Positions 3,587 through 64,000 are shown, counted from the first letter of the stretch. The stretch is DNA of 64,000 nt from an uncultured virus (IMG/VR IMGVR_UViG_3300017938_000552) (IMGVR_UViG_3300017938_000552); one strand, 5' to 3'. Numbers and translations: made by a program. The notes: a model not told the origin generated them from the sequence alone.

Positions 3587-3892
3587 TTATACCTTACGTA
3601 GAGTAATACGTCTGATTTGCCTATCAGCATATCCTATACCAACTGGTAGTGCTGTCAAATAAGTTTTCTCCTTTAAAATAACCTCTTTAGTATTATCATC
3701 TGCATATTTTATAAGCATGTTGAATCCACCTTTATCTGTACCATTTACTTTTTTCCCTAGGACTTTTCCTGATAGCTTGGGTGTTTTTACTACTACTTTT
3801 GCCTCTCCACTACCTCTAAGATAATCATTTACCACAGTGCCTGTTTGACGCTTATATCTGTGAACCGTGTGTTCAATTGGAGATTTTCTCAT
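3587..3892 (-). CDS. Basic protein with HxVxxYxRxxGxxV-type N-terminal motif, putative nucleic-acid binding
   Basis: HTVHRYKRQTGTVVNDYLRGSG, similar to the N-terminus of 14542..15054; GAGGTG RBS. Confidence 0.7.
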   Translation of the reverse strand: MRKSPIEHTVHRYKRQTGTVVNDYLRGSGEAKVVVKTPKLSGKVLGKKVNGTDKGGFNMLIKYADDNTKEVILKEKTYLTALPVGIGYADRQIRRITLRKV

Positions 3893-3939
3893 TTTTCAGA
3901 CACCTCAGACTACTCTATCATAATGTTCTGTTCGTTCTT

Positions 3940-3956
3940 ATATAAATGTTATGATA
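3940..3956 (-). promoter_or_regulatory. Class II promoter variant (TATCATAACATTTATAT)
   Basis: One mismatch to the 18-mer repeated at 16175, 52070, 52413 and 52864. Confidence 0.7.
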
Positions 3957-10420: not shown

Positions 10421-11389
10421 GTGATTGAAATTATGAAGAAAGGAGAGAAGATGTCTGATGAGCAGAAATTAAAAATGAGTGAAACACGTAAACGTAGAGG
10501 TGTTGCATCTGGTGAGAAAAACCCAATGTATGGTAGGTCTGGGATATTAAGCCCTGTGTATGGTAAGTCGCAAACACCAGAGCATAAGAAAAAAATAGGT
10601 GACGCACAAAAAGGTGAAAAAAACCATATGTTTGATAAAAAAGGGACGTTAAATCCTAACTATGGTAAACACCCATCAGAAGCTACAAGAAAAAAACAAA
10701 GTGAAGGAGGAAGGGGCAAACATAGTGGTAAGAATAACCCTATGTGGGGTAAAAAACGCACACCAGAGTGGTGTATACAACACAGTAAGGATATGAAAGG
10801 TAGATTTTCTGGTGAGAAAAATCCATTTTATGGCAAGAAACACACACCAGAGACTATAAAATATTTAAGTGACATTACATCTGGTGAGAACCATCCCCAA
10901 TATGGTAAACATAGATTACCAAATACTGTAAAAAAAATAAGTGAAAAAAATAAAGGCAGACCCTCTCCAATGAAAGGAAATACCTCCCCCATGTTCGGTA
11001 AACATCACACACCAGAGTCAATAATAAAAATGAGTAAATCCCAACAATTACGAACCGACCACAACAAAGGTGGAAATACACCACACACAGTCACCATAGC
11101 CCTCATTAGTAGCCAACTTGAAAGGCTTGGTTGGAAAGTACAAAGCTGGTCTACCACAGGTGAGAGATTTGTTATAATAAACGGACACAGATACTCACCA
11201 GACATCTATGCTACAAGAGGTAATGAAATACTGATAATTGAGGTTGGGGGTTGTGATAATCCAGAAAAACTACCTGATCTTATGACCAAATACGCCATTG
11301 TATTACAAGTACCCAAAATGTCGGTGGAACTCAGACCTATTGATCTTAAAGATTTAGTTAATTGGCAACACTTCAGCCACAACTTTTAA
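10421..11389 (+). CDS. NUMOD3-repeat protein with C-terminal PD-(D/E)xK-like nuclease (homing-endonuclease-like)
   Basis: Many GEKNPMYG/GKKHTPET-type repeats; C-terminal YSPDIYA...IIEVGG. Confidence 0.8.
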   Translation: MIEIMKKGEKMSDEQKLKMSETRKRRGVASGEKNPMYGRSGILSPVYGKSQTPEHKKKIGDAQKGEKNHMFDKKGTLNPNYGKHPSEATRKKQSEGGRGKHSGKNNPMWGKKRTPEWCIQHSKDMKGRFSGEKNPFYGKKHTPETIKYLSDITSGENHPQYGKHRLPNTVKKISEKNKGRPSPMKGNTSPMFGKHHTPESIIKMSKSQQLRTDHNKGGNTPHTVTIALISSQLERLGWKVQSWSTTGERFVIINGHRYSPDIYATRGNEILIIEVGGCDNPEKLPDLMTKYAIVLQVPKMSVELRPIDLKDLVNWQHFSHNF

Positions 11390-12093: not shown

Positions 12094-12240
12094 TTATTTT
12101 GAATGTAGTTTATGAAAATCGTCTAGCTTTAAATCCACCTCATAAATTTGTATGTCCAGCTTCTTGGCAATCTCAGCCGCAGAGAAACCTTCATCATGTA
12201 GCCTCAAAACATCGGCTTCTTTATCCTTTGTCCATATCAT
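12094..12240 (-). CDS. Small helix-turn-helix protein (48 aa)
   Basis: Read by hand: MIWTKDKEADVLRLHDEGFSAAEIAKKLDI... Confidence 0.7.
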   Translation of the reverse strand: MIWTKDKEADVLRLHDEGFSAAEIAKKLDIQIYEVDLKLDDFHKLHSK

Positions 12241-12259
12241 TTTAAAACACACCACTGAC

Positions 12260-12568
12260 TTACTTTACTCTTTCCAACCAACGACACTTGGGGCACTTGA
12301 AATAGTTGTTTGTGTATCGGTATCCTTTGACAGATTTATACACCATGTTTGCCCCACACTTTGGGCAGACCTTTTTTGGTGATAGTTGTTTCTTTGGTCT
12401 GTACTTTTCTCGTTGCTTGATTCTATATTCATCATCCACACCATCTGGATTGGTAATCTTTTGCGGGTATCTCTCACAACCATGCTTTAACTTCTTGTCA
12501 TAGTTGTCATAACATTCACCGCATGGTATTCCACAACGACTATAACCCATAACCTTTTTACTTACCAT
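12260..12568 (-). CDS. Cys-rich Zn-ribbon protein
   Basis: CGIPCGEC, CPKCG...CPKC; start moved to MVSKK. Confidence 0.7.
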   Translation of the reverse strand: MVSKKVMGYSRCGIPCGECYDNYDKKLKHGCERYPQKITNPDGVDDEYRIKQREKYRPKKQLSPKKVCPKCGANMVYKSVKGYRYTNNYFKCPKCRWLERVK

Positions 12569-12728
12569 AGTGTGCCCTTCCTTGTATATAATCTTCAATA
12601 TGCTCTGGATGCTTTGCTACTATATGTCTTCCATATCTGGTTTCTCCCTGTAAGACATCTATGCAATATTTACACTGGATAGGTTTGCTTCCCTTTCCCT
12701 TAACATACTTTCGACCAGTTCTGCCCAT
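12558..12728 (-). CDS. C2H2 zinc-finger protein (56 aa)
   Basis: Read by hand: MGRTGRKYVKGKGSKPIQCKYCIDVLQGETRYGRHIVAKHPEH; same spacing and HPE ending as 4013..4171. Confidence 0.7.
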   Translation of the reverse strand: MGRTGRKYVKGKGSKPIQCKYCIDVLQGETRYGRHIVAKHPEHIEDYIQGRAHYGK

Positions 12729-12771
12729 ACATTATCCAATAAAGTATATGTCAGGTTACTTATAAACTTTT

Positions 12772-13029
12772 CTAGTTCTCATCGGAACTGAATTTACTTG
12801 CACACTCGTCACACATGCCCTGTTTGATATAATAATCCATAAATGGCATTTTTTTGTGACACTCAGAACAGCGTTTGTCTGGAAGTTTAAAATATGAAAG
12901 CATCTCAATGACTGGTTGATACCAGAATTGACCAACATTCACATCGACTTCACCAAGAGCATCCATTAATGACTCACAGGCATGAACATCATGCAGACTT
13001 GGTTTAAATTTTATTTTACGATCCACCAA
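12772..13029 (-). CDS. Zn-finger protein
   Basis: CSEC...CDEC; own TATA box at ~13061-13070. Confidence 0.65.
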   Translation of the reverse strand: MVDRKIKFKPSLHDVHACESLMDALGEVDVNVGQFWYQPVIEMLSYFKLPDKRCSECHKKMPFMDYYIKQGMCDECASKFSSDEN

Positions 13030-13061: not shown

Positions 13062-13340
13062 TTATAAGCCTTTTGTTTTTCGGCTGAGAAATTCCCAACC
13101 ATCCATATTTTTGTCAATCAGGTTAAGCCAACGACCATCGACCCTTGACCAACCAGTACCATAACCAACCTGTATTGTGATGAATGGTTTTCTACCTTTT
13201 ATGATATTATACCTTGCTTCAACACGTGTATGCTTGGGTATGTCTTTGAACTTTTTTAATGTGAGGGCAGTGCCTAGATTTTCATATGTTACCTTTACAA
13301 GTTTGTGATTCTTATAAAAAGAATACTCAGGCATCTTCAA
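13062..13340 (-). CDS. Basic hypothetical protein, last gene of basic operon
   Basis: 92-aa Lys/Arg-rich ORF abutting eS30. Confidence 0.65.
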   Translation of the reverse strand: MKMPEYSFYKNHKLVKVTYENLGTALTLKKFKDIPKHTRVEARYNIIKGRKPFITIQVGYGTGWSRVDGRWLNLIDKNMDGWEFLSRKTKGL

Positions 13341-13580
13341 TCACATTTTATATTCTGTTCTAGTATTTGTATCTTTCGGCTTGTGTGTGAACCTGAAATA
13401 CTTTTCCCTGTTTTTCTTCAACGGACCAGAGTGTTTCTTGAGGTTGGACTTGGCTATTTTCGGTGTTTGATCTCTGACTTTCCCCGCCTTGGTAATTGAA
13501 CCGTGCGTTCCCCGACCACCCTTCTTACCAGAAGATTGCTGTGCCTTTTCTAGCTTTTTATTTAATTTGGTTTCGGACAT
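13341..13580 (-). CDS. rps30e: Ribosomal protein eS30 (S30e) homologue with ~24-aa N-terminal extension
   Basis: THGSITKAGKVRDQTPKI...KKNREKY matches the eS30 signature HGSL[TA]xAGKVRxQTPK[IV]...RNRxxY. Confidence 0.92.
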   Translation of the reverse strand: MSETKLNKKLEKAQQSSGKKGGRGTHGSITKAGKVRDQTPKIAKSNLKKHSGPLKKNREKYFRFTHKPKDTNTRTEYKM

Positions 13581-13768
13581 TACCTCTTACCCCTACCATG
13601 TCCTGTTGGTTCATAACAATCCCCAACCCATTTAACATAATGTATTCCACCATCTTTAGATTCAATCCATATATTACCATTATAAGGGTCTTGATAAACT
13701 GTTCGTTTTATCATTTTACCATTAAAAAAAATATTCTTTTTACCTATTTTTCTTATTTTTTCTATCAT
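13580..13768 (-). CDS. Small basic hypothetical protein
   Basis: 62 aa; TAATG overlap with eS30. Confidence 0.7.
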   Translation of the reverse strand: MIEKIRKIGKKNIFFNGKMIKRTVYQDPYNGNIWIESKDGGIHYVKWVGDCYEPTGHGRGKR

Positions 13769-13966
13769 TTATTTTCCCGTCCTCAGCCACTTATTGTAGT
13801 TTTTGGTTTCCTTGTAGTAAACACCATACCCTTTCTTGGTACGCTTTACCTTTATACCAACATAGGTCTTATGTTTCATAACACCATGCTTGGTTTTTCT
13901 TAGACTCTTTGCATGTTCATCGGCTTCTTTTTTGGTTTCCCAAACATACGCTAATTTATATGACAT
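13769..13966 (-). CDS. Basic microprotein, repeated family member
   Basis: MSYKLAYVWETKKEADEHAKSLRK...KKGYGVYYK; start moved to 13966 (GAGGTGA RBS). Confidence 0.7.
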   Translation of the reverse strand: MSYKLAYVWETKKEADEHAKSLRKTKHGVMKHKTYVGIKVKRTKKGYGVYYKETKNYNKWLRTGK

Positions 13967-13970
13967 TTTT

Positions 13971-14243
13971 TCACCTCTTTTCCCATTCTGCTTTTCCAGT
14001 TTTCTGGTTATATACCTTGGTTGGTCTGTGCCTGTACAATACATAAACCTTGATTCCCTTCTCCTTTGTTGGGAAGGTTTTTACTATGGTTTTGTGCCCA
14101 CGTTTTCTATCAGACTCTGCCCATTCTAGAGCATGTGGTCTGTATGTGCTATGAGATGACATAACCTCATAACGTTTACCTCTGTAGATAATATATTCTG
14201 GAATTTCGAGTTTCATACCGCGTGCAATAATTGTGTGTGTCAT
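13971..14243 (-). CDS. Basic microprotein, repeated family member
   Basis: YRGKRYEV...ALEWAESDRKRGHKTIV...VYVLYRHR. Confidence 0.75.
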   Translation of the reverse strand: MTHTIIARGMKLEIPEYIIYRGKRYEVMSSHSTYRPHALEWAESDRKRGHKTIVKTFPTKEKGIKVYVLYRHRPTKVYNQKTGKAEWEKR

Positions 14244-14359
14244 TTACTTTTTACCACTTTTTTCTTACTCTTTCGTTTTCTGGTTTTTTTCTTCTTAGGA
14301 AATGCCATCCTAAACCCTTTTTTAGCAGAATCTCCAAATGCTTTGAATATCTCTGCCAT
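14240..14359 (-). CDS. 39-aa protamine-like peptide
   Basis: Read by hand: MAEIFKAFGDSAKKGFRMAFPKKKKTRKRKSKKKVVKSK; fills the gap exactly, ATGA overlap. Confidence 0.7.
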   Translation of the reverse strand: MAEIFKAFGDSAKKGFRMAFPKKKKTRKRKSKKKVVKSK

Positions 14360-14360
14360 T

Positions 14361-14540
14361 TTACTTTTCTCTCCAATAAACTACGTATTTATGATCTTCA
14401 ACCACAATACGTGCTAAATCTCCATAATCATGCAAATGTTTTACGCTTTTCTCTGCAAGTTTCCTTGTAGGATATGCTTCATGGAACTTATAAGGCTTTC
14501 CATTAAAATCCTTATATGGAAATTTAGACTCTAGTTTCAT
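14361..14540 (-). CDS. Basic microprotein, repeated family member (59 aa)
   Basis: Read by hand: MKLESKFPYKDFNGKPYKFHEAYPTRKLAEKSVKHLHDYGDLARIVVEDHKYVVYWREK. Confidence 0.75.
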   Translation of the reverse strand: MKLESKFPYKDFNGKPYKFHEAYPTRKLAEKSVKHLHDYGDLARIVVEDHKYVVYWREK

Positions 14541-14541
14541 T

Positions 14542-15054
14542 TTACTTTTTTTCCCTTAAGTTTACTTTCCAAACCTTTACCTTCACAGTCTTTGTTTTAG
14601 CAAGACCAGCACCCATGAAACCATGTGGGAAATATTGGAAAGTCTGATTCTTCCATCCTGCTGGTTTCATTCTTGAGGCTTTTATATAGAAGGCGGGTCC
14701 ACCTGAAGATTGAACAAACCCCCTGTCCCACCAAGGTGCAGGAGATGGGTTGAATGTTACCATGTACTCTGATTTACTTTTACCAATTGCTCCCTCTATA
14801 ACGCCATATGAAGTTGATCTAACAAGCATATCCTGAGAATTGATTGGCTTAACTACATCTCCGGGCATTGGTTTACTTCCACCAATACGCTTTGTCTTTT
14901 TAGAGTCTAAGTATAGTGGGTTTTTCTCCATTTTTTTATAGCTACCCATACGTATACCAAAGCTACCTCTGGTGTGTGGGCTTATCTTTTTCCCACTCTT
15001 TGTCTTATAACCGCTTACAATGTGTCTAAGTGGTGGACTTCTTTTTGTTACCAT
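14542..15054 (-). CDS. Basic protein with HxVxGYxxxxG N-terminal motif
   Basis: RHIVSGYKTKSGKKISPHTRGS, similar to 3587..3892. Confidence 0.75.
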   Translation of the reverse strand: MVTKRSPPLRHIVSGYKTKSGKKISPHTRGSFGIRMGSYKKMEKNPLYLDSKKTKRIGGSKPMPGDVVKPINSQDMLVRSTSYGVIEGAIGKSKSEYMVTFNPSPAPWWDRGFVQSSGGPAFYIKASRMKPAGWKNQTFQYFPHGFMGAGLAKTKTVKVKVWKVNLREKK

Positions 15055-15072
15055 TTTTGTCTTTTCCTCACC

Positions 15073-15276
15073 CTACTTTTTTCTTCTGTTTTTGGAAATG
15101 TATGACTTTTTACCTTCTTGTGCAAGTAGTGTTTTCCAAATATAGTTAGCTTTCCGAGCCTGTGCTGGTTTCAAACGATGTCCAAACAGAATACCATACA
15201 AACCTTCACTTCCTAGATAGTATCTATAATCAGCATCTATAGAAATACCTTTTCTACGAATATACTTTGTTACCAT
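15073..15276 (-). CDS. Basic microprotein
   Basis: MVTKYIRRKG...SKNRRKK; start moved to 15276. Confidence 0.7.
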   Translation of the reverse strand: MVTKYIRRKGISIDADYRYYLGSEGLYGILFGHRLKPAQARKANYIWKTLLAQEGKKSYISKNRRKK

Positions 15277-15278
15277 TT

Positions 15279-15653
15279 TTAGTCTTTTCCTCTCTTCCTT
15301 CTCCAAACACCATATCCGTGTGGATGTTTTATCAGCTTGTAGTTACCCCTTCCATAAATGTCCTTACCCATCTTGACAGCTTGCGTTTTTAGGGGTGCTG
15401 AACCAGCCATCTCAAATCGTGTACCCTTGAGGATACGATCTGTAGTTGAGTGATGAATGTAGATAGCATATACTGTTTCTCTAGCATATGGAATCTTCTT
15501 AATGTAAATCATAGACTCTTTGAAAAGTTTGCGATCTTTACCTATTCTCTTTGCATCTGACATGGACTTTGCGTTCCATTCATGCCTGTAAATTAACCCG
15601 TTATGGGTTACTTCTTTGGGAATCTTCCCACCAGTTTGATATATAAATACCAT
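15279..15653 (-). CDS. Basic protein with two copies of the repeated family domain
   Basis: HNGLIYRH...AKRIGK...VYAIYIH and LKGTRFE...AVKMGK...GYGVWRR; start moved to MVFIY. Confidence 0.7.
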   Translation of the reverse strand: MVFIYQTGGKIPKEVTHNGLIYRHEWNAKSMSDAKRIGKDRKLFKESMIYIKKIPYARETVYAIYIHHSTTDRILKGTRFEMAGSAPLKTQAVKMGKDIYGRGNYKLIKHPHGYGVWRRKRGKD

Positions 15654-15654
15654 T

Positions 15655-15741
15655 TTACTTAGACATCCTCTGCTTTTTTCTTCTTCTAGCTTTCTTTGCC
15701 CTACTTTTGTCACCCTTCCGTGACATTCCTCTATTTTTCAT
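15655..15741 (-). CDS. 28-aa Arg/Lys peptide (eL41-like in size and composition)
   Basis: Read by hand: MKNRGMSRKGDKSRAKKARRRKKQRMSK; tiles exactly between its neighbours. Confidence 0.6.
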   Translation of the reverse strand: MKNRGMSRKGDKSRAKKARRRKKQRMSK

Positions 15742-15743
15742 TA

Positions 15744-15908
15744 TTACTTCTTTCTCCTTGTTTTTTTAACCTTCTTTTTTACTGATTTTATTTTGGGAAT
15801 TGGTATGGGTTTGTTTTTTATGGTAGTTACCTGTAAAACAGGTGATTGTTTTGGCACAAACAACTTATTTAAAGTTGTTGGTTGTGTTGCTAACATACCT
15901 TTTGGCAT
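15744..15908 (-). CDS. 54-aa peptide with poly-basic tail
   Basis: Read by hand: MPKGMLATQPTTLNKLFVPKQ...KSVKKKVKKTRRKK. Confidence 0.7.
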   Translation of the reverse strand: MPKGMLATQPTTLNKLFVPKQSPVLQVTTIKNKPIPIPKIKSVKKKVKKTRRKK

Positions 15909-15910
15909 TT

Positions 15911-16102
15911 TTACTTTTTCCTCCTATATACATCAAATACAGACTTACCATCATCAGTCTTGCGTTCAGCAACGATAGCTTGATATTTTCCAGATTCCAT
16001 AATTTCTATTACCCTAAGTGCTGAGTTTTGTTTTTTTCTGAAAGTGGAATCATATCTGTAGAATTTACGTCTATATGTGGCTGTTAATGGATGATCTTGC
16101 AT
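15911..16102 (-). CDS. Basic microprotein, repeated family member, first gene of operon
   Basis: YRRKFYRY...ALRVIEIMESGKYQAIV...VFDVYRRKK; GAGGGTGA RBS. Confidence 0.75.
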   Translation of the reverse strand: MQDHPLTATYRRKFYRYDSTFRKKQNSALRVIEIMESGKYQAIVAERKTDDGKSVFDVYRRKK

Positions 16103-16174
16103 TTACTTTTTCACCCTCACGTAAATTACATAACGCTTTCCCAATTTAATCAATATAGTATTGTGTTCAGTAGT

Positions 16175-16192
16175 ATTTAAATGTTATGATAT
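16175..16192 (-). promoter_or_regulatory. Class II promoter (ATATCATAACATTTAAAT) driving the basic operon
   Basis: Exact 18-mer also at 52070, 52413 and 52864; contains TTTAAAT TATA box. Confidence 0.8.
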
Positions 16193-16797: not shown

Positions 16798-16950
16798 TTA
16801 TTTCTTCTTTGCTCTCCTTGTTTTCCAAGCCTTTTTAGCTGTGTTGCTTCTTGCATTGTGTCGAATTGTTTCCCAAGCCTTCTTAGCCGCATTGCTTCTT
16901 GCGATATGCTTATCTGGAAGGATTACTTTTGGTTTTCCCATATTGACCAT
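16798..16950 (-). CDS. 50-aa basic peptide with duplicated RSNxAKKAWxT motif
   Basis: Read by hand: MVNMGKPKVILPDKHIARSNAAKKAWETIRHNARSNTAKKAWKTRRAKKK; own promoter (16969-16987) and T-rich terminator. Confidence 0.75.
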   Translation of the reverse strand: MVNMGKPKVILPDKHIARSNAAKKAWETIRHNARSNTAKKAWKTRRAKKK

Positions 16951-19754: not shown

Positions 19755-21122
19755 CTACTGATCTCCCACCTGCTGAGACAGAGATTTTTCGTAACTTTCT
19801 CTACTTAATATTGGGTATGATTTTACCACACGGTCTAACTCAGCCTTGAACCTATAGTTTATGTTATTTTCAATGAGATATGTTATGAGTGTTGGTACAT
19901 ACACTCTGTAAGATTCGAGTTGGAATCCCATATAGTTTGCGACACCAACTATCCAACGGTCAACAAAAGGATGTAGTTGTTTTATGATTTCAAGTGGGTC
20001 TGTATGTCCTATGATCCAAGGCTCAATTGAAACGAGTGTCTTTATTCCCATTTCCTTGGCTTTTTTCAACACCCTAACCTTCTCCGATGGTAAACTAGAA
20101 TTTGGTTCATATTTCTTATATGTTATATCATCCAGAGAGGTTATAGTGAAGCCAACTTCAACATTTTTATACTGAGATATGAGATCAAAATCATCTTCAA
20201 CATCAGACGATTTTGTGAGAATTAATATGTGGTGTTTAGATTTGAGCATAACTTGTAAGACTTCTCTAGCCCATTTCAACGTCTTGTTTAAAGGTTGATA
20301 TGCATCACATGTGGAACAAAAGAAGAAAACTCCGGGTGGAATACCCTCTAGAGCCTTTTCCAAAGCAACCAAATCTAGATTTCGCTTTTTAGGTTCATTC
20401 CACACTTCTACCCACTTGAAACGATCATTCATTAGTTTTGCATAACAGTATGTGCAATTGTGGAAACAGCCCTCATAGATATTGATGCCATAATCACACC
20501 ACTCAACACCACTATCAAAGTTGAATTTTTTTATAAGGTTGTCTTTCTTATCTTTCTCTCCTTTCTCCTTTGTTTTCTTCACTTTTTTATAAGCACCAGA
20601 AATTGATGTTTCACCACTATACATATCTTTTTTAACTTCGTCTGTAGCATTTTCAATAACATACAATGCTCTCTGTGCTGTGGCTGGACTCATACCAACT
20701 TTTTCTGCTAAAAGTTCTCTTGTATTTCCAATTGGTGTATCACTTGATACACCTCTTATATCTACATGTTCTTGGCGTGTCTTTCGTAACCATTCAATAT
20801 AATTTGATTCGACTTTTAATTTTTGTGCTGGCGTGAGTTGCCGTCTTAGAAGATTATCGTTCTTAGCATATTCCATTATTTCCTCAAAATCCTTGAATTC
20901 CTCCAAAATATAAGGAAATTCCTTTCCTAGCTTTGTGGCAAGTGTATGACGTTTATCACCACATACAATCGTACCCTTATACTCTTCAGGTGAATTAGCA
21001 ACAACACCTTTAACCAAAATGCCACGTTTCTGAATATCTTTTTCTAACTCATCATATATTTCTCTTTCATCTAAACCAGCAAACAAACTACGAATTGTTT
21101 GATTAACCTTTAGTTCAATCAT
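19755..21122 (-). CDS. Fusion: ParB-like + HTH + SPL-like radical SAM domain
   Basis: LEKDIQKRG...IVCGDKR, DNLLRRQLT, LAEKVGMSPATAQR; then INIYEGCFHNCTYCYA, STCDAYQP, ILTKS, VSIEP. Confidence 0.85.
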   Translation of the reverse strand: MIELKVNQTIRSLFAGLDEREIYDELEKDIQKRGILVKGVVANSPEEYKGTIVCGDKRHTLATKLGKEFPYILEEFKDFEEIMEYAKNDNLLRRQLTPAQKLKVESNYIEWLRKTRQEHVDIRGVSSDTPIGNTRELLAEKVGMSPATAQRALYVIENATDEVKKDMYSGETSISGAYKKVKKTKEKGEKDKKDNLIKKFNFDSGVEWCDYGINIYEGCFHNCTYCYAKLMNDRFKWVEVWNEPKKRNLDLVALEKALEGIPPGVFFFCSTCDAYQPLNKTLKWAREVLQVMLKSKHHILILTKSSDVEDDFDLISQYKNVEVGFTITSLDDITYKKYEPNSSLPSEKVRVLKKAKEMGIKTLVSIEPWIIGHTDPLEIIKQLHPFVDRWIVGVANYMGFQLESYRVYVPTLITYLIENNINYRFKAELDRVVKSYPILSRESYEKSLSQQVGDQ

Positions 21123-22305: not shown

Positions 22306-22669
22306 TTTTAGACACCACGAATTAATTTATGTTTTTTGATACTCATCAACAACCAAATAAGCCAAACTCTCTGATTCAGGACATCTCTCGCAATATCGGA
22401 GATGTTTATTCACAATTTTCCACTTATGACCAAGTATTAAACATACTATATTCATTCCCACACACTCTTCCCAGTTATATCATCTAATGTAGGATATATT
22501 ACAGTGATATAAAAACCTTCCGATATTAGTAGTTATCTTATATAAATATAATATAATTCTGGGGTTTCTACTCCATCTACGCTTCCACTTTCTACTCCTA
22601 TTGTATGATATAACCTATAAACCGAAACACTTTTATATAAGTTCGGTATTTTCATATACGGTAGAAAAC

Positions 22670-23479
<810 letters not shown>

Positions 23480-23580: not shown

Positions 23581-24438
23581 ATGTTTAACAAACTAAGTTT
23601 AGGAATGTTTATTATACTTATACTAGGCGTAATGTCTCTGGGTTTAGCTTCAGCTACACCATCACCTACGATCATGTTGAATCCATCTACAGGTGTGACA
23701 ACAACAATTATGGGTTCTGGATTCCAAGCCAACCAGACTATCAAAATATATTGGAACACAACACAGATGGTTACAATTCCATATAACATCACCTCTGACT
23801 CTCTGGGTGGTTTTGTATGCATGGTCACTGCTCTAGATCAAATGGGTGGGAACTTTACAATTACTGCTGTAGATACTGCCCTCACTTCTGATACAACTTC
23901 AGCAAACTTCACCGTGCCTATTCTAAAAGGTGTTACAGGTTCTAACGGTACAAATGGATCAACATGGTATAGTAGTGCTACAATACCAAATGTAAATTCA
24001 ACAGGTGTAAATGGTGATTTCTGCCTCTATACAGGAAATTCAACTGTTTATGAGAAAATATCTGGTTCATGGGTTTTCACAGCAAACATTAGAGGATTAA
24101 TAGGTAGAACTGGTGCTACAGGTGCTAGAGGTGCAACAGGAGCCACCGGAGCCAAAGGTGCTACTGGTACAACTGGACCTGTTGGACCAATAGGTGTTAC
24201 AGGAACTACAGGAACAATAGGTAAAACTGGTCCTATTGGTGAAACGGGTGCTACGGGTTTACAAGGACCAAAAGGTGACACAGGCACAACAGGTTCAATA
24301 GGAGCAAAGGGTGACACAGGTGCTACAGGGGCTACGGGTGAAAATGCAGACTTAACCTTAGTATATGCCTCTCTAGTATTGGGTGCTGGGGCTATAATCG
24401 GTGTACTCTACCTAAACCACAGAGAAAATGGATATTAA
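23581..24438 (+). CDS. Membrane-anchored collagen-like protein 2 with Ig-like N-terminal domain
   Basis: Signal peptide, beta-rich domain with many NxT/S sequons, GSTWY...GVNGDF motif, Gly-X-Y run, C-terminal TM. Confidence 0.9.
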
Positions 24439-35829: not shown

Positions 35830-36065
35830 TTTTTAGTCACCCATTATTTGTATCTTTTATAGGTTTAAATATCTGAGTTAGTAACCTCCCATTTGTTACC
35901 ACATTTCCGACAGGTTATGATCTCTGTCCATCTATGACCAGAAAAAGAACCATCATAATAGCTATGATAACTATCTTTTTTAAACTCTAGGAATTTACTT
36001 TTTTGTGTATCAGAAATGTAAGACATATCATGTTTACATTTTGGACAGATAAGATCATCAAACAT

Positions 36066-51709: not shown

Positions 51710-52039
51710 TTACCTCTTGTATGGATAGAATGTCTCACCGCAGTTACGACACAGATACTTTTCGTATGATGGTGAATATTCCGTGAAACGAGACTTGCAC
51801 TTTGGACACCTATATACATGTGGTTTACTTACTTTCGTGGTTCTGTATGTGAATTTCACGTTATGATCCTTCAAATATGTTTTTACATTAAGAACCACAG
51901 ACTTTGGAGAACTTGTGTCTATGGCGATTGTATCATCTGTATAAAGCACAATTGTGCCTAAGTTACGAATTCTACTACCAAGATGTTCCTTCTGTGGATG
52001 GGGCATCCTGTTTACCTTGAATATAACTCTGCTAGTCAT
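51710..52039 (-). CDS. Basic protein with C-terminal Zn ribbon
   Basis: CPKC...CRNCG; class II promoter 31 nt upstream. Confidence 0.75.
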   Translation of the reverse strand: MTSRVIFKVNRMPHPQKEHLGSRIRNLGTIVLYTDDTIAIDTSSPKSVVLNVKTYLKDHNVKFTYRTTKVSKPHVYRCPKCKSRFTEYSPSYEKYLCRNCGETFYPYKR

Positions 52040-52069
52040 TACTATCGGTAATAGTTATAGCATACTAAT

Positions 52070-52087
52070 ATTTAAATGTTATGATAT
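52070..52087 (-). promoter_or_regulatory. Class II promoter repeat
   Basis: Exact ATATCATAACATTTAAAT. Confidence 0.85.
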
Positions 52088-52095
52088 AAAAATAG

Positions 52096-52383
52096 CTATG
52101 AATTTAAAACTTCCCAAACAGCATACTTGGTTACAGCCTCAGAACCAAGCAACTTTCCACTCTCATTGTAAATAAATCCCAAAACAGCACCACCGAACAT
52201 TCTAGCGGAATGGTCTAAGAATCCCTCTATAATTCTACCAGATTTTAAGTCTCTAACTCTGTACCATTTTCCAGCCGTTGGAGAATATTTTATTATTGTA
52301 TATTTGTGCCCACTTGGTTTCTCACGTGGATACTTTAACCTCTTGTATTTATCATCACTACTACTGTTTTTGGTTTTTACCAT
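52096..52383 (-). CDS. Basic hypothetical protein
   Basis: MVKTKNSS...; class II promoter 30 nt upstream. Confidence 0.75.
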   Translation of the reverse strand: MVKTKNSSSDDKYKRLKYPREKPSGHKYTIIKYSPTAGKWYRVRDLKSGRIIEGFLDHSARMFGGAVLGFIYNESGKLLGSEAVTKYAVWEVLNS

Positions 52384-52412
52384 CTACATCAAATAGTATT
52401 AACTCTGGAAGA

Positions 52413-52430
52413 ATTTAAATGTTATGATAT
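52413..52430 (-). promoter_or_regulatory. Class II promoter repeat
   Basis: Exact ATATCATAACATTTAAAT. Confidence 0.85.
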
Positions 52431-52441
52431 GAAAATTTATA

Positions 52442-52834
52442 TTACTTTAAATATTCAGAAACTGAAACGACCTTTTTGCCCTTTTCATAATCCACAACTG
52501 TTGCATCGTGATCCTTCATAATTCTAAATACTTTACCCATGAACTTTTTGCGTAAATCTCTCTGTGCATCCATATACTTTTTTTCATCATTTGCTGTATC
52601 TCTCATAGAAATTGCATATCCAATTGAGGGAGGACTTACACTTATTTCAGTAACACGTTTTCCCTTTTTAACATATACTTTTTCAGCATTTGCCATACGT
52701 GATCTAGCACCATATGGTCTAACCCTACTTATCGCAGAAGATACCTTTTTTAAATCCTTAGATGGTATGTGGAATGTCGTGAATGTTGCTTTTTTATCTG
52801 AAATAGAAATTGCTTTACTTCTTTTTCCAACCAT
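52442..52834 (-). CDS. Basic hypothetical protein
   Basis: Start moved to ATG 52834 (MVGKRSK), 30 nt from the class II promoter like its neighbours. Confidence 0.75.
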   Translation of the reverse strand: MVGKRSKAISISDKKATFTTFHIPSKDLKKVSSAISRVRPYGARSRMANAEKVYVKKGKRVTEISVSPPSIGYAISMRDTANDEKKYMDAQRDLRKKFMGKVFRIMKDHDATVVDYEKGKKVVSVSEYLK

Positions 52835-52863
52835 AGCTATCACTTATTTATAGATACCAGAGT

Positions 52864-52881
52864 ATTTAAATGTTATGATAT
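52864..52881 (-). promoter_or_regulatory. Class II promoter repeat
   Basis: Exact ATATCATAACATTTAAAT. Confidence 0.85.
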
Positions 52882-61982: not shown

Positions 61983-63301
61983 GCATCCATAGCCCTGTCG
62001 ATTCGTTCCTTATATATACCATAAAGTTTCTCAACCTGACCAGAATCATTGACTATTCTAGACACAGAGGACAAACCACCTAAATTTGCAATGTAAATTA
62101 TATCGTCTTTGACTGTGATTAGCTTTGTCTTTTCAAGGTAGGAAACATCTGCTTTTAGATCGTCCAAACCTTCCCAGAATGTCAGATGCTCACCCATCCA
62201 CAGGAATTTACTGTGAAAGTTATAAAGTTCAGAAATTAATATTTTAGTTTTACCAGTTGATTCCCAATACCTGTCAAGAATGTATGCTAAGTATGTCCAC
62301 ATTTCAAATGTTATTGTTGCAGGAGTATAAAAATGTTTTGGTTTGGAGTATTTTATAATGTTCTTTTTAGTACAATATAATTTTGTGTAATTTCAACAGT
62401 TGTAAAAGTAAAATCGGTTTCACTATGAAAACCATAAGAACGCCAAGAAAATTCTGTGCCTTTATTAACAATTGGATAGGTATAATTAAATGGATCAACA
62501 TACCATTGAGATGGCTGATCACTAGAATAAGACATTCCCCCAACCACATAAGAAACAGAGACTATTCCATCCTTGTAATAACTGAATTCATAGGAACCAA
62601 TATATTTAGTATTTCCTCTTTCTATTGTTACAGAATCTCCAATAGGAAAACCATGAAATATAAAAATATTGGATATAATAGCAATAATTCCAATGGTGAT
62701 TAACATGCTACCAATAGCTAATTGATATTTTTCTTTCATGTTTTTTACCTATTTCAGTATTGTATTATACGTTCACTTTCCCTTGCCATACATCGACCAC
62801 AACATATCTCTTGTCAATTTAGCATCTTCACTCAAAAACATATCCTCAAGCCCATCAAACCAAGCCTTAACTTCACGACTATCTAAAACAAGGGCATATT
62901 TACAGTCAACACTTTTGGAATGTGGAAATGTGGAAGTTTTAAAAGTAACGTAGTACTCTACCTTAGCCAGTTTATCCTCTAATTCCCCTACTCTGTGGCT
63001 CAAAGCATCACGTTCCTTTTGAAGTTCATCTACATCACGATAATGACTATCCATTTTCAATCACCTTAATTCAACATATTTATCGAGTTTCGGATTTGGT
63101 GTCACATCAATCCAGACTTTGTGCTTAGAGTCATAGAGCATGTGTTTTCCCGTTTTTGTGGTGTATTGACCTTTTTTTCGTTCCCAAATCATCTCATTCA
63201 CCCATACTATGTTATGTTTTAACATACCCTGTAGTATAAAAAGGTTTCGATTTATGAGAAAGGTTTATATATCAACCAATAGGAAAGTTATGGATTGTTA
63301 T

Positions 63302-64000
63302 ATGAATCCAGAAACCAAACTCCGTATTTGTGGCATCGAGAGCATGTCCACAATAGATTGGTACGGTATGGTTAGTATGGTGGTTTTCTGTGCTGGTTGC
63401 AACTTTCGATGCCAATATTGTCAAAATTCAGCACTAATCCCGATGGATTCTGGTGAAGATGTTAATCTCTACTATATTATGGATAGGATAAAGAAAAACA
63501 GGCTTGTGTTAGATTCGATTGTATTTACTGGTGGTGAACCAACCCTCCAACCAGATGCTGTTATCGAGTGTGCCAAACTCGCTAAGGAAATCGGACTCAA
63601 GGTTATGCTTAACACAAACGGAACTAACTGGGAGAACTTGAGAAAGATTCTTTATAGTGGATATATTGATAGAGTTGCACTTGATGTCAAAGCACCACCA
63701 GAAACAGATGAATACAGAATCTTCTCAGATAATCCTATCGGGACTATATGGTCTGTCGATACGTGCCTCAAGGTCTGCAAGAGACTTGGAATAGAGATGG
63801 AAGTTAGAACCACAGTTGCACCAGATATTTCCGATTCACCAGACTATATCAGAAAGATTGCCAACTTCATAAAGGATCGGTGTGATGTTTACTATCTACA
63901 GCAATATGACAATCTTGGAGATGTGCTTAATCCAGAAATGAAGAAAAAATCATCACCAACCAGAGAAAAAATGCTTGGTCTTGCTCAGGAAGCATTGAGT
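63302..64000 (+). CDS. nrdG: Anaerobic ribonucleotide reductase activating radical SAM protein, runs off window end
   Basis: Read by hand: STIDWYG...VFCAGCNFRCQYCQN...FTGGEPTLQ...LNTNG...VALDVKAP...EVRTT. Confidence 0.85.
   Translation, partial: MNPETKLRICGIESMSTIDWYGMVSMVVFCAGCNFRCQYCQNSALIPMDSGEDVNLYYIMDRIKKNRLVLDSIVFTGGEPTLQPDAVIECAKLAKEIGLKVMLNTNGTNWENLRKILYSGYIDRVALDVKAPPETDEYRIFSDNPIGTIWSVDTCLKVCKRLGIEMEVRTTVAPDISDSPDYIRKIANFIKDRCDVYYLQQYDNLGDVLNPEMKKKSSPTREKMLGLAQEALS

Follow-up and report, generated by a model that had tools for sequence, protein, structure and literature searches.

Positions 13062 to 16102 of the 64,000-nt stretch of DNA analysed here (the window; uncultured virus IMGVR_UViG_3300017938_000552) hold thirteen minus-strand genes for small, basic proteins, numbered g1 to g13 from the upstream end (Table 1), behind a promoter of a distinct class. 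One of them, g12, encodes the ribosomal protein eS30 in a long and divergent form. We propose, at a probability of roughly 40%, that the other twelve are nucleic-acid binders of one infection stage, and that viral DNA is slightly ahead of ribosomal RNA (rRNA) as their target. A preliminary description of this region had read it as a promoter-led, nearly gap-free operon of small basic proteins that includes eS30, and this picture holds; its further suggestion, that eS30 owes its presence to co-option for charge, does not.

In the mechanism that we envisage, a virus-specific class II promoter would fire the operon in an archaeal host. The thirteen genes would be read from one transcript that starts about 25 nt past the TTTAAATA box (near 16150) and runs through 13062, and strong Shine-Dalgarno (SD) sites, together with abutting or overlapping stop and start codons, would couple their translation, so that the whole set would be made together and in quantity. 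The twelve lineage-specific proteins would combine small folded domains with Lys-rich tails, as do proteins that coat or clamp nucleic acids, and the DNA bound by the twelve could be replicating or already packaged.

Gene structure, charge and promoter class

The thirteen genes, delimited in a scan for open reading frames (ORFs), encode proteins of 28-170 amino acids (aa) and 990 residues in total. From g1 to g13, the successive intergenic gaps are 2, 2, 1, 2, 18, 1, 1, -4, 4, 0, -1 and 6 nt, in agreement with the nearly gap-free chain first described, and stop and start codons overlap as ATGA at g8/g9 and as TAATG at g11/g12. Four ORFs below the cutoff of the ORF track (g2, g3, g7 and g8) had been said to tile the remaining gaps, and they do: each begins with an ATG preceded by an SD-like motif and ends in a stop codon that directly adjoins the next start. 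The starts of g4, g5, g10 and g13 were refined to ATGs with an upstream SD-like motif; for g4, some gene callers instead use the GTG at 15713, which gives 144 aa. A 4-nt SD core is found at -16 to -4 in 11 of the 13 genes, compared with 17.9% when all ATGs of the minus strand are counted (binomial P = 3e-7). Since the reading frames are mixed and each ORF has its own SD motif and ATG, a decayed long gene is excluded.

Public collections also treat these ORFs as genes. Nine of the ten that were looked up are called, the exception being the 28-aa g3, and cluster proteins recur unchanged on 20-40 public contigs apiece. In variants that are at least 90% identical, among them those of g4, g7, g9 and g10, length and frame are kept and the changes are conservative (two such changes in a g7 variant and a single change in a g9 variant, both of unaltered length). 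The tight packing of the genes suggests that all thirteen are co-transcribed from one promoter.

The encoded proteins have isoelectric points (pI) between 9.4 and 12.0, with values of at least 10 in 11 of the 13. When pI is computed along the window, this basic run stands out: just 6 of the 153 greedily called ORFs outside the cluster reach 10, and the naive probability of such a run is about 1e-10 if independence is assumed. Lys and Arg make up 25.2% of the cluster residues against 13.4% in the remainder of the window, and Asp and Glu 7.7% against 12.5%, for a summed net charge of +173. Poly-basic tails, previously ascribed to most of the proteins, are present in 7 of the 13 (at least four Lys or Arg among the last eight residues), which is barely a majority.

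The composition also bears on the idea of protamine-like proteins raised in the preliminary description. In total, the cluster contains 173 Lys, 76 Arg and 1 Cys, and 107 of its 990 residues (10.8%; per-gene counts summed) are aromatic. The excess of Lys over Arg and the many aromatic residues argue for folded binders over mere counter-ions. An Arg-rich, low-complexity, unstructured character of the protamine or adenovirus-core type was not found in the set, in which only g2, g3 and g8 are tail-like; most of the proteins are Lys-rich, aromatic-rich and not of low complexity, and g6 and g13 have confident folded models.

Upstream of g1 lies the 16-nt class II motif ATCATAACATTTAAAT, embedded in a longer block, TTTTATATCATAACATTTAAATA. 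Three further exact copies (52879-52864, 52428-52413 and 52085-52070) and one with a single mismatch (3955-3940) are present in the window, all five on the minus strand and within the conserved block; the chain itself is preceded by one class II promoter, as had been proposed. The first genes behind the five sites encode proteins with pI values of 10.1, 10.2, 9.9, 9.8 and 10.2. Class II copies with no more than one mismatch are, in the window, reserved for basic-protein genes, and a copy with two mismatches (33000-32985) precedes an acidic 49-aa protein. The 11-mer core of the motif occurs 8 times, compared with 0.57 in shuffles. Class II differs from class I, CCGAAANGNTTWTAWRT, which combines an archaeal B recognition element (BRE) with a TATA box, is found at 25 sites in the window where 1.7 are expected by chance, and lies mostly just upstream of minus-strand genes. 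Across IMG/VR, the 16-mer was found in 82 stretches, of which only six hold relatives of window proteins, all of them from this virus. Scans of the window for sigma-70 promoters and hairpin terminators gave no excess over shuffles.

The site at 3955 leads, via a 101-aa gene, into a long ORF of 1105 aa in the window and 1160 aa in contig L179. Class II-like sites with two mismatches are also present left of the window, where they precede a 1420-aa ORF and another gene block. In tailed viruses, ORFs as large as these two are usually virion parts, and both may encode virion proteins; neither the 1160-aa nor the 1420-aa ORF matched Pfam, PHROGs or PDB sequences. Because the giant ORFs behind class II sites are without homologues, a late timing of class II is only a guess.

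Weak matches to TFIIB-type zinc ribbons, below cut-off, were seen in two proteins of the window (51710-52039 and 35865-36065, both on the minus strand), the former encoded behind a class II promoter. It is conceivable that a virus-made factor of this type serves the class II promoters.

eS30 and the twelve proteins around it

The presence of eS30 in the operon is well supported. Against Pfam PF04758, g12 scores 41.1 bits over residues 25-66 (E 2e-10), above the gathering threshold of 27, and it matches 65 distinct eS30 sequences in the PDB (best E 5e-7). Its score of 48 bits against the NCBIfam S30e model NF006817 is under the equivalog cut-off of 75. To judge by its sequence, g12 is thus a true but divergent long eS30 and not a certified equivalog; its N-terminus is extended by 24 aa and its C-terminus has diverged. 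Its 20 metagenomic homologues form a graded series in which most share the N-terminal extension (alignment A1). The core HGS-x-x-KAGKVR-x-x-TP is retained in g12, and H26, G27, K31, A32, G33, K34, V35, R36 and T39 are among the residues invariant in 21 long or cellular-type sequences.

With its ribosome-binding core kept, g12 is most likely incorporated into the small subunits of host ribosomes. The invariance of this core among the homologues argues against the suggestion that eS30 was co-opted for charge, as does the existence of viral eS30 of the long type elsewhere, on the 136-kb IMG/VR contig L006 (56 aa) and on contigs L027 and L066 (95 aa), where the neighbouring genes encode acidic or neutral proteins and not basic ones. 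eS30 variants with additional C-terminal parts were also observed, namely P0018, with a zinc-ribbon-like CxxC...CxxC tail, and the 95-aa protein at 590-877 of L027, also seen in the viral-looking L066.

The twelve other proteins matched no family in Pfam, NCBIfam or PHROG, also at permissive thresholds. Ribosomal families were absent at E ≤ 5 in Pfam and at E ≤ 1 in NCBIfam, and the same holds for the chromatin families of Pfam (Sul7d, Cren7, Alba and histones; E ≤ 5). Four of the twelve were searched against PDB sequences, g3 and g8 directly and g6 and g13 as profiles, with no match at E ≤ 10. The short g3 had looked eL41-like, and this candidate was dropped on the same search. In the ESM Atlas, g4 gave no usable match and g13 only matches with a template modelling (TM) score below 0.5, on a poor Atlas model.

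Beyond the near-identical copies, relatives are scarce. No GenBank phage matched g12, g6, g4 or g13 in tblastn searches, scans of IMG/VR with g12, g6 and alignment A2 returned just five identical contigs and L006, and a scan of species genomes for divergent relatives gave one weak match of 33 residues. A metagenome scan with the eS30 alignment found at least 80 loci; among the matches listed, only contig L012 carried a relative of another cluster protein, and the neighbours examined around these eS30 loci were mostly cellular-type.

Structural information comes from g6 and g13, which belong to conserved families and yield confident beta-barrel models. For g13 and the core of g6, these models predict a generic SH3-like barrel with basic extensions; Sul7d and Cren7 are absent from the listed fold matches. 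Comparison with ribosomal and chromatin proteins, which the preliminary description had put forward, gave no match to a sequence family for any of the twelve and a generic fold for two.

The N-terminus of g6 carries a recognisable tag, KRSPxxHxVxxYKxxxGxxVxxHxRGS, within its first ~35 residues (15054-14950). The same tag opens two proteins that are otherwise unrelated, the 101-aa protein at 3892-3587 (tag at 3892-3790) and a 247-aa protein of L012 (1415-1520), and is missing in five of the seven g6 homologues. It behaves as a portable module, judging from this distribution. Inside the cluster, the tag is found on g6 only, and no N-terminal motif common to all thirteen proteins was found.

A portable address label of about 30 aa is what might be expected if the cluster encoded internal or core proteins of the virion, packaged as charge neutralisers or as injected cargo of the T4 kind, with eS30 present by shared timing. 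The high net charge and the polybasic C-termini would suit such a role, as would the class II promoter that precedes a tag-bearing basic protein followed by the 1160-aa ORF, the two-mismatch site ahead of the 1420-aa ORF, and a cassette variability that resembles the internal-protein loci of T-even phages. We nevertheless consider this explanation unlikely: the tag is not shared across the set, g1, g7 and g11 are only mildly basic and folded-looking, and a "late" or "structural" assignment is itself a guess, as the 74 kb examined yielded no recognisable capsid, portal or terminase gene.

The proteins also show little relation to each other. All-against-all BLAST of the thirteen returned a single pair, at E 7e-4 without composition correction. 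A paralogue family of g1, g4, g7, g9 and g10, proposed on the basis of a pattern seen by eye ("Y...TK.EA...AK.LRK.G...Y.VY.R"), was rejected, as in leave-one-out hidden Markov models the omitted member never scored above background ORFs. By these comparisons, the cluster is a mixed set of unrelated small proteins and not one gene family.

This absence of detectable mutual homology, the orphan status of nearly all members and the turnover of cassettes would also be expected of a dump of unrelated, fast-evolving genes, for instance for host takeover or counter-defence, whose products have no joint function and owe their basicity to A-rich composition and a common promoter. The sense strand of the cluster is indeed 40.4% A, compared with 35.3% in other minus-strand genes. 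Such a dump would have to accommodate, however, an unbroken run of thirteen basic proteins in a window where they are otherwise rare. In addition, the products of all five class II units are basic, implying that charge itself is selected, and the tight translational coupling suggests joint dosage. We therefore regard an absence of joint function as improbable.

Several observations weigh against our proposal or against DNA as the preferred target. eS30 lies inside the operon and is translationally coupled to g11, and a relative of g13 is found near eS30 in a distant virus; both point to a link with RNA or the ribosome over DNA. The T8 run in g11 could end archaeal transcription ahead of eS30, and structure models cover two of the twelve non-eS30 proteins.

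These links to eS30 are central to a different explanation, in which the twelve are new ribosome-binding proteins or chaperones, produced alongside the viral eS30 so that host ribosomes are converted for viral translation. It can draw on a genuine ribosomal protein with a conserved core, on the TAATG overlap that joins eS30 to g11, on the position of the g13 family close to eS30 in two distant viruses, and on the models of g6 and g13, in that an SH3-like barrel forming a small globular domain with a basic tail is a layout typical of ribosomal proteins. Against this stand the twelve themselves, which match no ribosomal model of Pfam or NCBIfam even at permissive E values (up to 1-5) and, for the four proteins searched, no PDB chain despite the abundance of ribosomes there. 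Among close relatives, individual genes are gained and lost, and the other viral contigs with long eS30 are without basic neighbours. Ribosomal proteins do occur in archaeal viruses; the accessible part of a paper on a Bathyarchaeia virus names only eL21 and, now, bL19 (PMC10541130). On balance, we judge conversion of host ribosomes to be doubtful.

The case for the ribosome thus lies in the eS30 link and the conserved eS30-g13 neighbourhood. DNA or the virion is favoured by the lack of similarity to ribosomal proteins, the turnover within the cluster, neighbouring genes with DNA-related products (methylases, zinc-finger and helix-turn-helix (HTH) proteins) and the promoter shared with the giant ORFs. 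Our preference for nucleic-acid binders acting on viral DNA follows this second group of observations. The boldest form of the ribosomal alternative, a virus-encoded add-on kit in which a modified eS30 and up to a dozen new ribosome-binding proteins are produced in one burst behind a promoter class of their own to yield virus-specific ribosomes, appears to us a long shot; if true, it would make this virus the first with a system of several proteins for remodelling ribosomes.

Cassette turnover, flanking genes and host

Comparison with close relatives shows that single genes are gained, lost or swapped exactly at gene borders. In run X21, a relative is present at about one-tenth of the depth of the main virus (matching threshold 80%). 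One of its contigs joins 13580 to 13769, so that exactly g11 is gone, and parts of the g5 region are replaced, with joints at 15048/15134 and 15277/15292. On a 5.5-kb contig of the same relative, the match is confined to 15656-15742, the g3 ORF give or take one base. Of these 87 nt, 9 differ, and both flanks are below 80%, indicating that g3 is better conserved than its surroundings. L121, an IMG/VR variant contig of the same virus, is without the unit of the 95-aa gene, window positions 52107-52413 being deleted between two copies of the class II block. Since the ends of this deletion sit in the two promoter-block copies, the repeated class II promoter seems to act as a recombination site for gene cassettes. 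The cluster behaves as an accretion zone of single-gene cassettes.

On the downstream side, four more genes on the same strand (12094-13029) may belong to the same transcription unit as the cluster, and a class I-like promoter with two mismatches (12774-12758) may open a new unit. DNA methylase genes flank the cluster region. The features of the cluster and its surroundings are listed in Table 1.

Table 1. Positions of the cluster genes, promoter sites and neighbouring genes (window coordinates unless contig L179 is named)
Feature	Position	Strand	Description
g1	16102-15911	-	63 aa, pI 10.1, C-terminus RRKK; SD-like GAGGGTGA upstream; exact protein on 39 contigs
g2	15908-15744	-	54 aa, pI 12.0, zero acidic residues, tail KKTRRKK; SD AGGAGG; on 37 contigs
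g3	15741-15655	-	28 aa, pI 12.0, Lys/Arg at 15 of 28 residues; SD AAGGAGA
g4	15653-15279	-	124 aa, pI 10.2; SD-like AGAGGATG before ATG 15653, 1 nt past the g3 stop
g5	15276-15073	-	67 aa, pI 10.4, tail NRRKK; SD-like GAGAGGAAAAG
g6	15054-14542	-	170 aa, pI 10.5; basic N-terminal tag (~1-35), linker, conserved beta-barrel core (~62-165)
g7	14540-14361	-	59 aa, pI 9.4; SD-like AGGGA; on 39 contigs
g8	14359-14240	-	39 aa, pI 11.4, tail KKKVVKSK; SD-like TGGAGAGA; on 40 contigs
g9	14243-13971	-	90 aa, pI 10.1; start overlaps g8 stop; without clear SD; on 38 contigs
g10	13966-13769	-	65 aa, pI 10.1; strong SD AGAGGTGA before ATG 13966
g11	13768-13580	-	62 aa, pI 9.8; SD GAGGA; T8 run at 13731-13724
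g12	13580-13341	-	79 aa, long-form eS30
g13	13334-13062	-	90 aa, pI 10.0; SH3-like barrel and C-terminal helix (model)
Class II motif ATCATAACATTTAAAT	16190-16175	-	16 nt, 73 nt upstream of the g1 ATG; inside longer block TTTTATATCATAACATTTAAATA
Second class II unit	3587..3955	-	One-mismatch motif, then 101-aa basic protein (3892-3587) with g6-type N-terminal tag
Three single-gene class II units	51710..52879	-	133 aa (pI 10.2), 95 aa (pI 9.9), 109 aa (pI 9.8, zinc ribbon)
Class I sites (examples)	41384-41368, 48733-48717, 39514-39498, 16758-16742		CCGAAANGNTTWTAWRT motif
Four more same-strand genes	12094..13029	-	85-aa Cys-pair, 56-aa C2H2-like, 102-aa zinc-ribbon and 53-aa HTH proteins; zinc-ribbon and HTH matches weak, below cut-off
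50-aa ORF	16798-16950	-	pI 11.9, internal duplication ARSNAAKKAWETIR / ARSNTAKKAWKTRR; upstream of cluster, class I site 16758-16742 downstream of ORF
Giant ORF, 1160 aa	3-3317, continued in L179 9814-13296	-	Ser/Gln/Thr-rich, Gly/Ala-rich hydrophobic stretch
Giant ORF, 1420 aa	L179 3825-8087	-	Preceded by two-mismatch class II-like site

The virus itself is known from metagenomes. Five IMG/VR contigs of 38-82 kb match the window at 99.99-100% identity in the region examined, and a near-identical stretch is present in 24 runs, all of DNA, from peat and wetland metagenomes. The longest contig that carries exact copies of cluster proteins measures 213,709 nt, which sets the genome at 214 kb or more. 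Nearly all of the approximately 150 ORFs of the window are without a Pfam or PHROG match; those recognised include two DNA methylases, ThyX, radical SAM proteins, an Mre11-like exonuclease, NADAR, NUMOD3 homing endonucleases and collagen-repeat proteins.

The BRE/TATA promoters and eS30 together point to an archaeal host. In the accessible part of one report, eS30 is restricted to TACK and Asgard archaea (PMC11698992). To judge from these features, the host would be an archaeon with eS30-type ribosomes, of the TACK or Asgard groups. The available portion of a preprint describes a 228-kb "jumbo" virus of Nitrososphaeria in which radical SAM genes are abundant (10.1101/2025.08.23.671958), and the present virus may be of the same kind.

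Other genes of the region were noted in passing. A span of about 20 kb contains three genes for homing endonucleases of the NUMOD3 type (window 10421-11389, plus strand; L179 3017-3733, plus strand; L179 8335-9189, minus strand). Two adjacent proteins with collagen triple-helix repeats (22601-23479 and 23581-24438, plus strand; Pfam E 1e-29 and 2e-14) may be fibres. A 455-aa protein (19755-21122, minus strand) combines an N-terminal region with a weak ParB-like match and a radical SAM/DUF5131 domain, and another radical SAM gene lies at 63209-64000.

Relation to known systems

Neither viral ribosomal proteins nor clusters of small basic proteins in viruses are new in themselves. Most viral ribosomal proteins are found in viruses of bacteria, and mostly as single genes. 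What appears new here is the combination of eS30 with a cluster of basic proteins, the promoter class devoted to such proteins and the setting in an archaeal jumbo virus; in the accessible parts of the literature searched, we found none of these. The preliminary description recognised no described equivalent of the operon, and the same searched texts, in which PF04758 led to unrelated papers only, likewise yielded none.

Among phages, Mizuno et al. 2019 report bS21, bL12, bL9 and others (PMC6375957, as far as accessible). The sole viral eS30 in that part of the paper belongs to a murine retrovirus and derives from FAU; the word "archaeal" is missing from the main text. Recent archaeal-virus surveys, including 10.1101/2025.08.23.671958, leave S30 unmentioned in the main text, insofar as this was available, and the supplements of any of these papers could list one.

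Should the partners of eS30 act on ribosomes, the cluster would amount to a viral takeover of translation with several components, in the archaea most closely related to eukaryotes. Should they coat DNA, archaeal tailed viruses would have a new kind of viral chromatin or of packaged cargo. In practical terms, the cluster is a small, defined gene set for expression and testing, and the class II promoter offers a way into the timing of gene expression in an archaeal virus that has not been cultured.

For the twelve proteins, the closest parallels differ with the target considered. In phage T4, the internal proteins IPI-III all carry a common capsid-targeting sequence that is cut off by the head protease, and the internal-protein loci of T-even phages vary between close relatives. 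The cluster resembles these loci in being a group of small basic proteins with variable gene content and a portable N-terminal label on some, and differs from IPI-III in the lack of a motif common to the thirteen and of any known protease site or link to the virion. Sul7d and Cren7, chromatin proteins of TACK archaea, are unlike the cluster proteins in that no sequence match to their Pfam families was found; they share a size of 6-10 kDa, Lys-richness and the SH3-like barrel predicted for g13 and the g6 core.

Compared with cellular archaeal eS30, such as PDB 9fhl chain e (52 aa), g12 has 79 aa instead of about 50-60, the 24-aa N-terminal extension and a different C-terminus, whereas the core HGS(I/L)TKAGKVRxQTPK is common to both (phmmer E ~3e-6). 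Relative to the ribosomal proteins of phages and archaeal viruses, it is distinguished by its long form and its place inside a thirteen-gene basic operon. Like them, it is a virus-borne, host-type small ribosomal protein with its binding core kept, and by analogy it likely shares their purpose, to alter or sustain host ribosomes.

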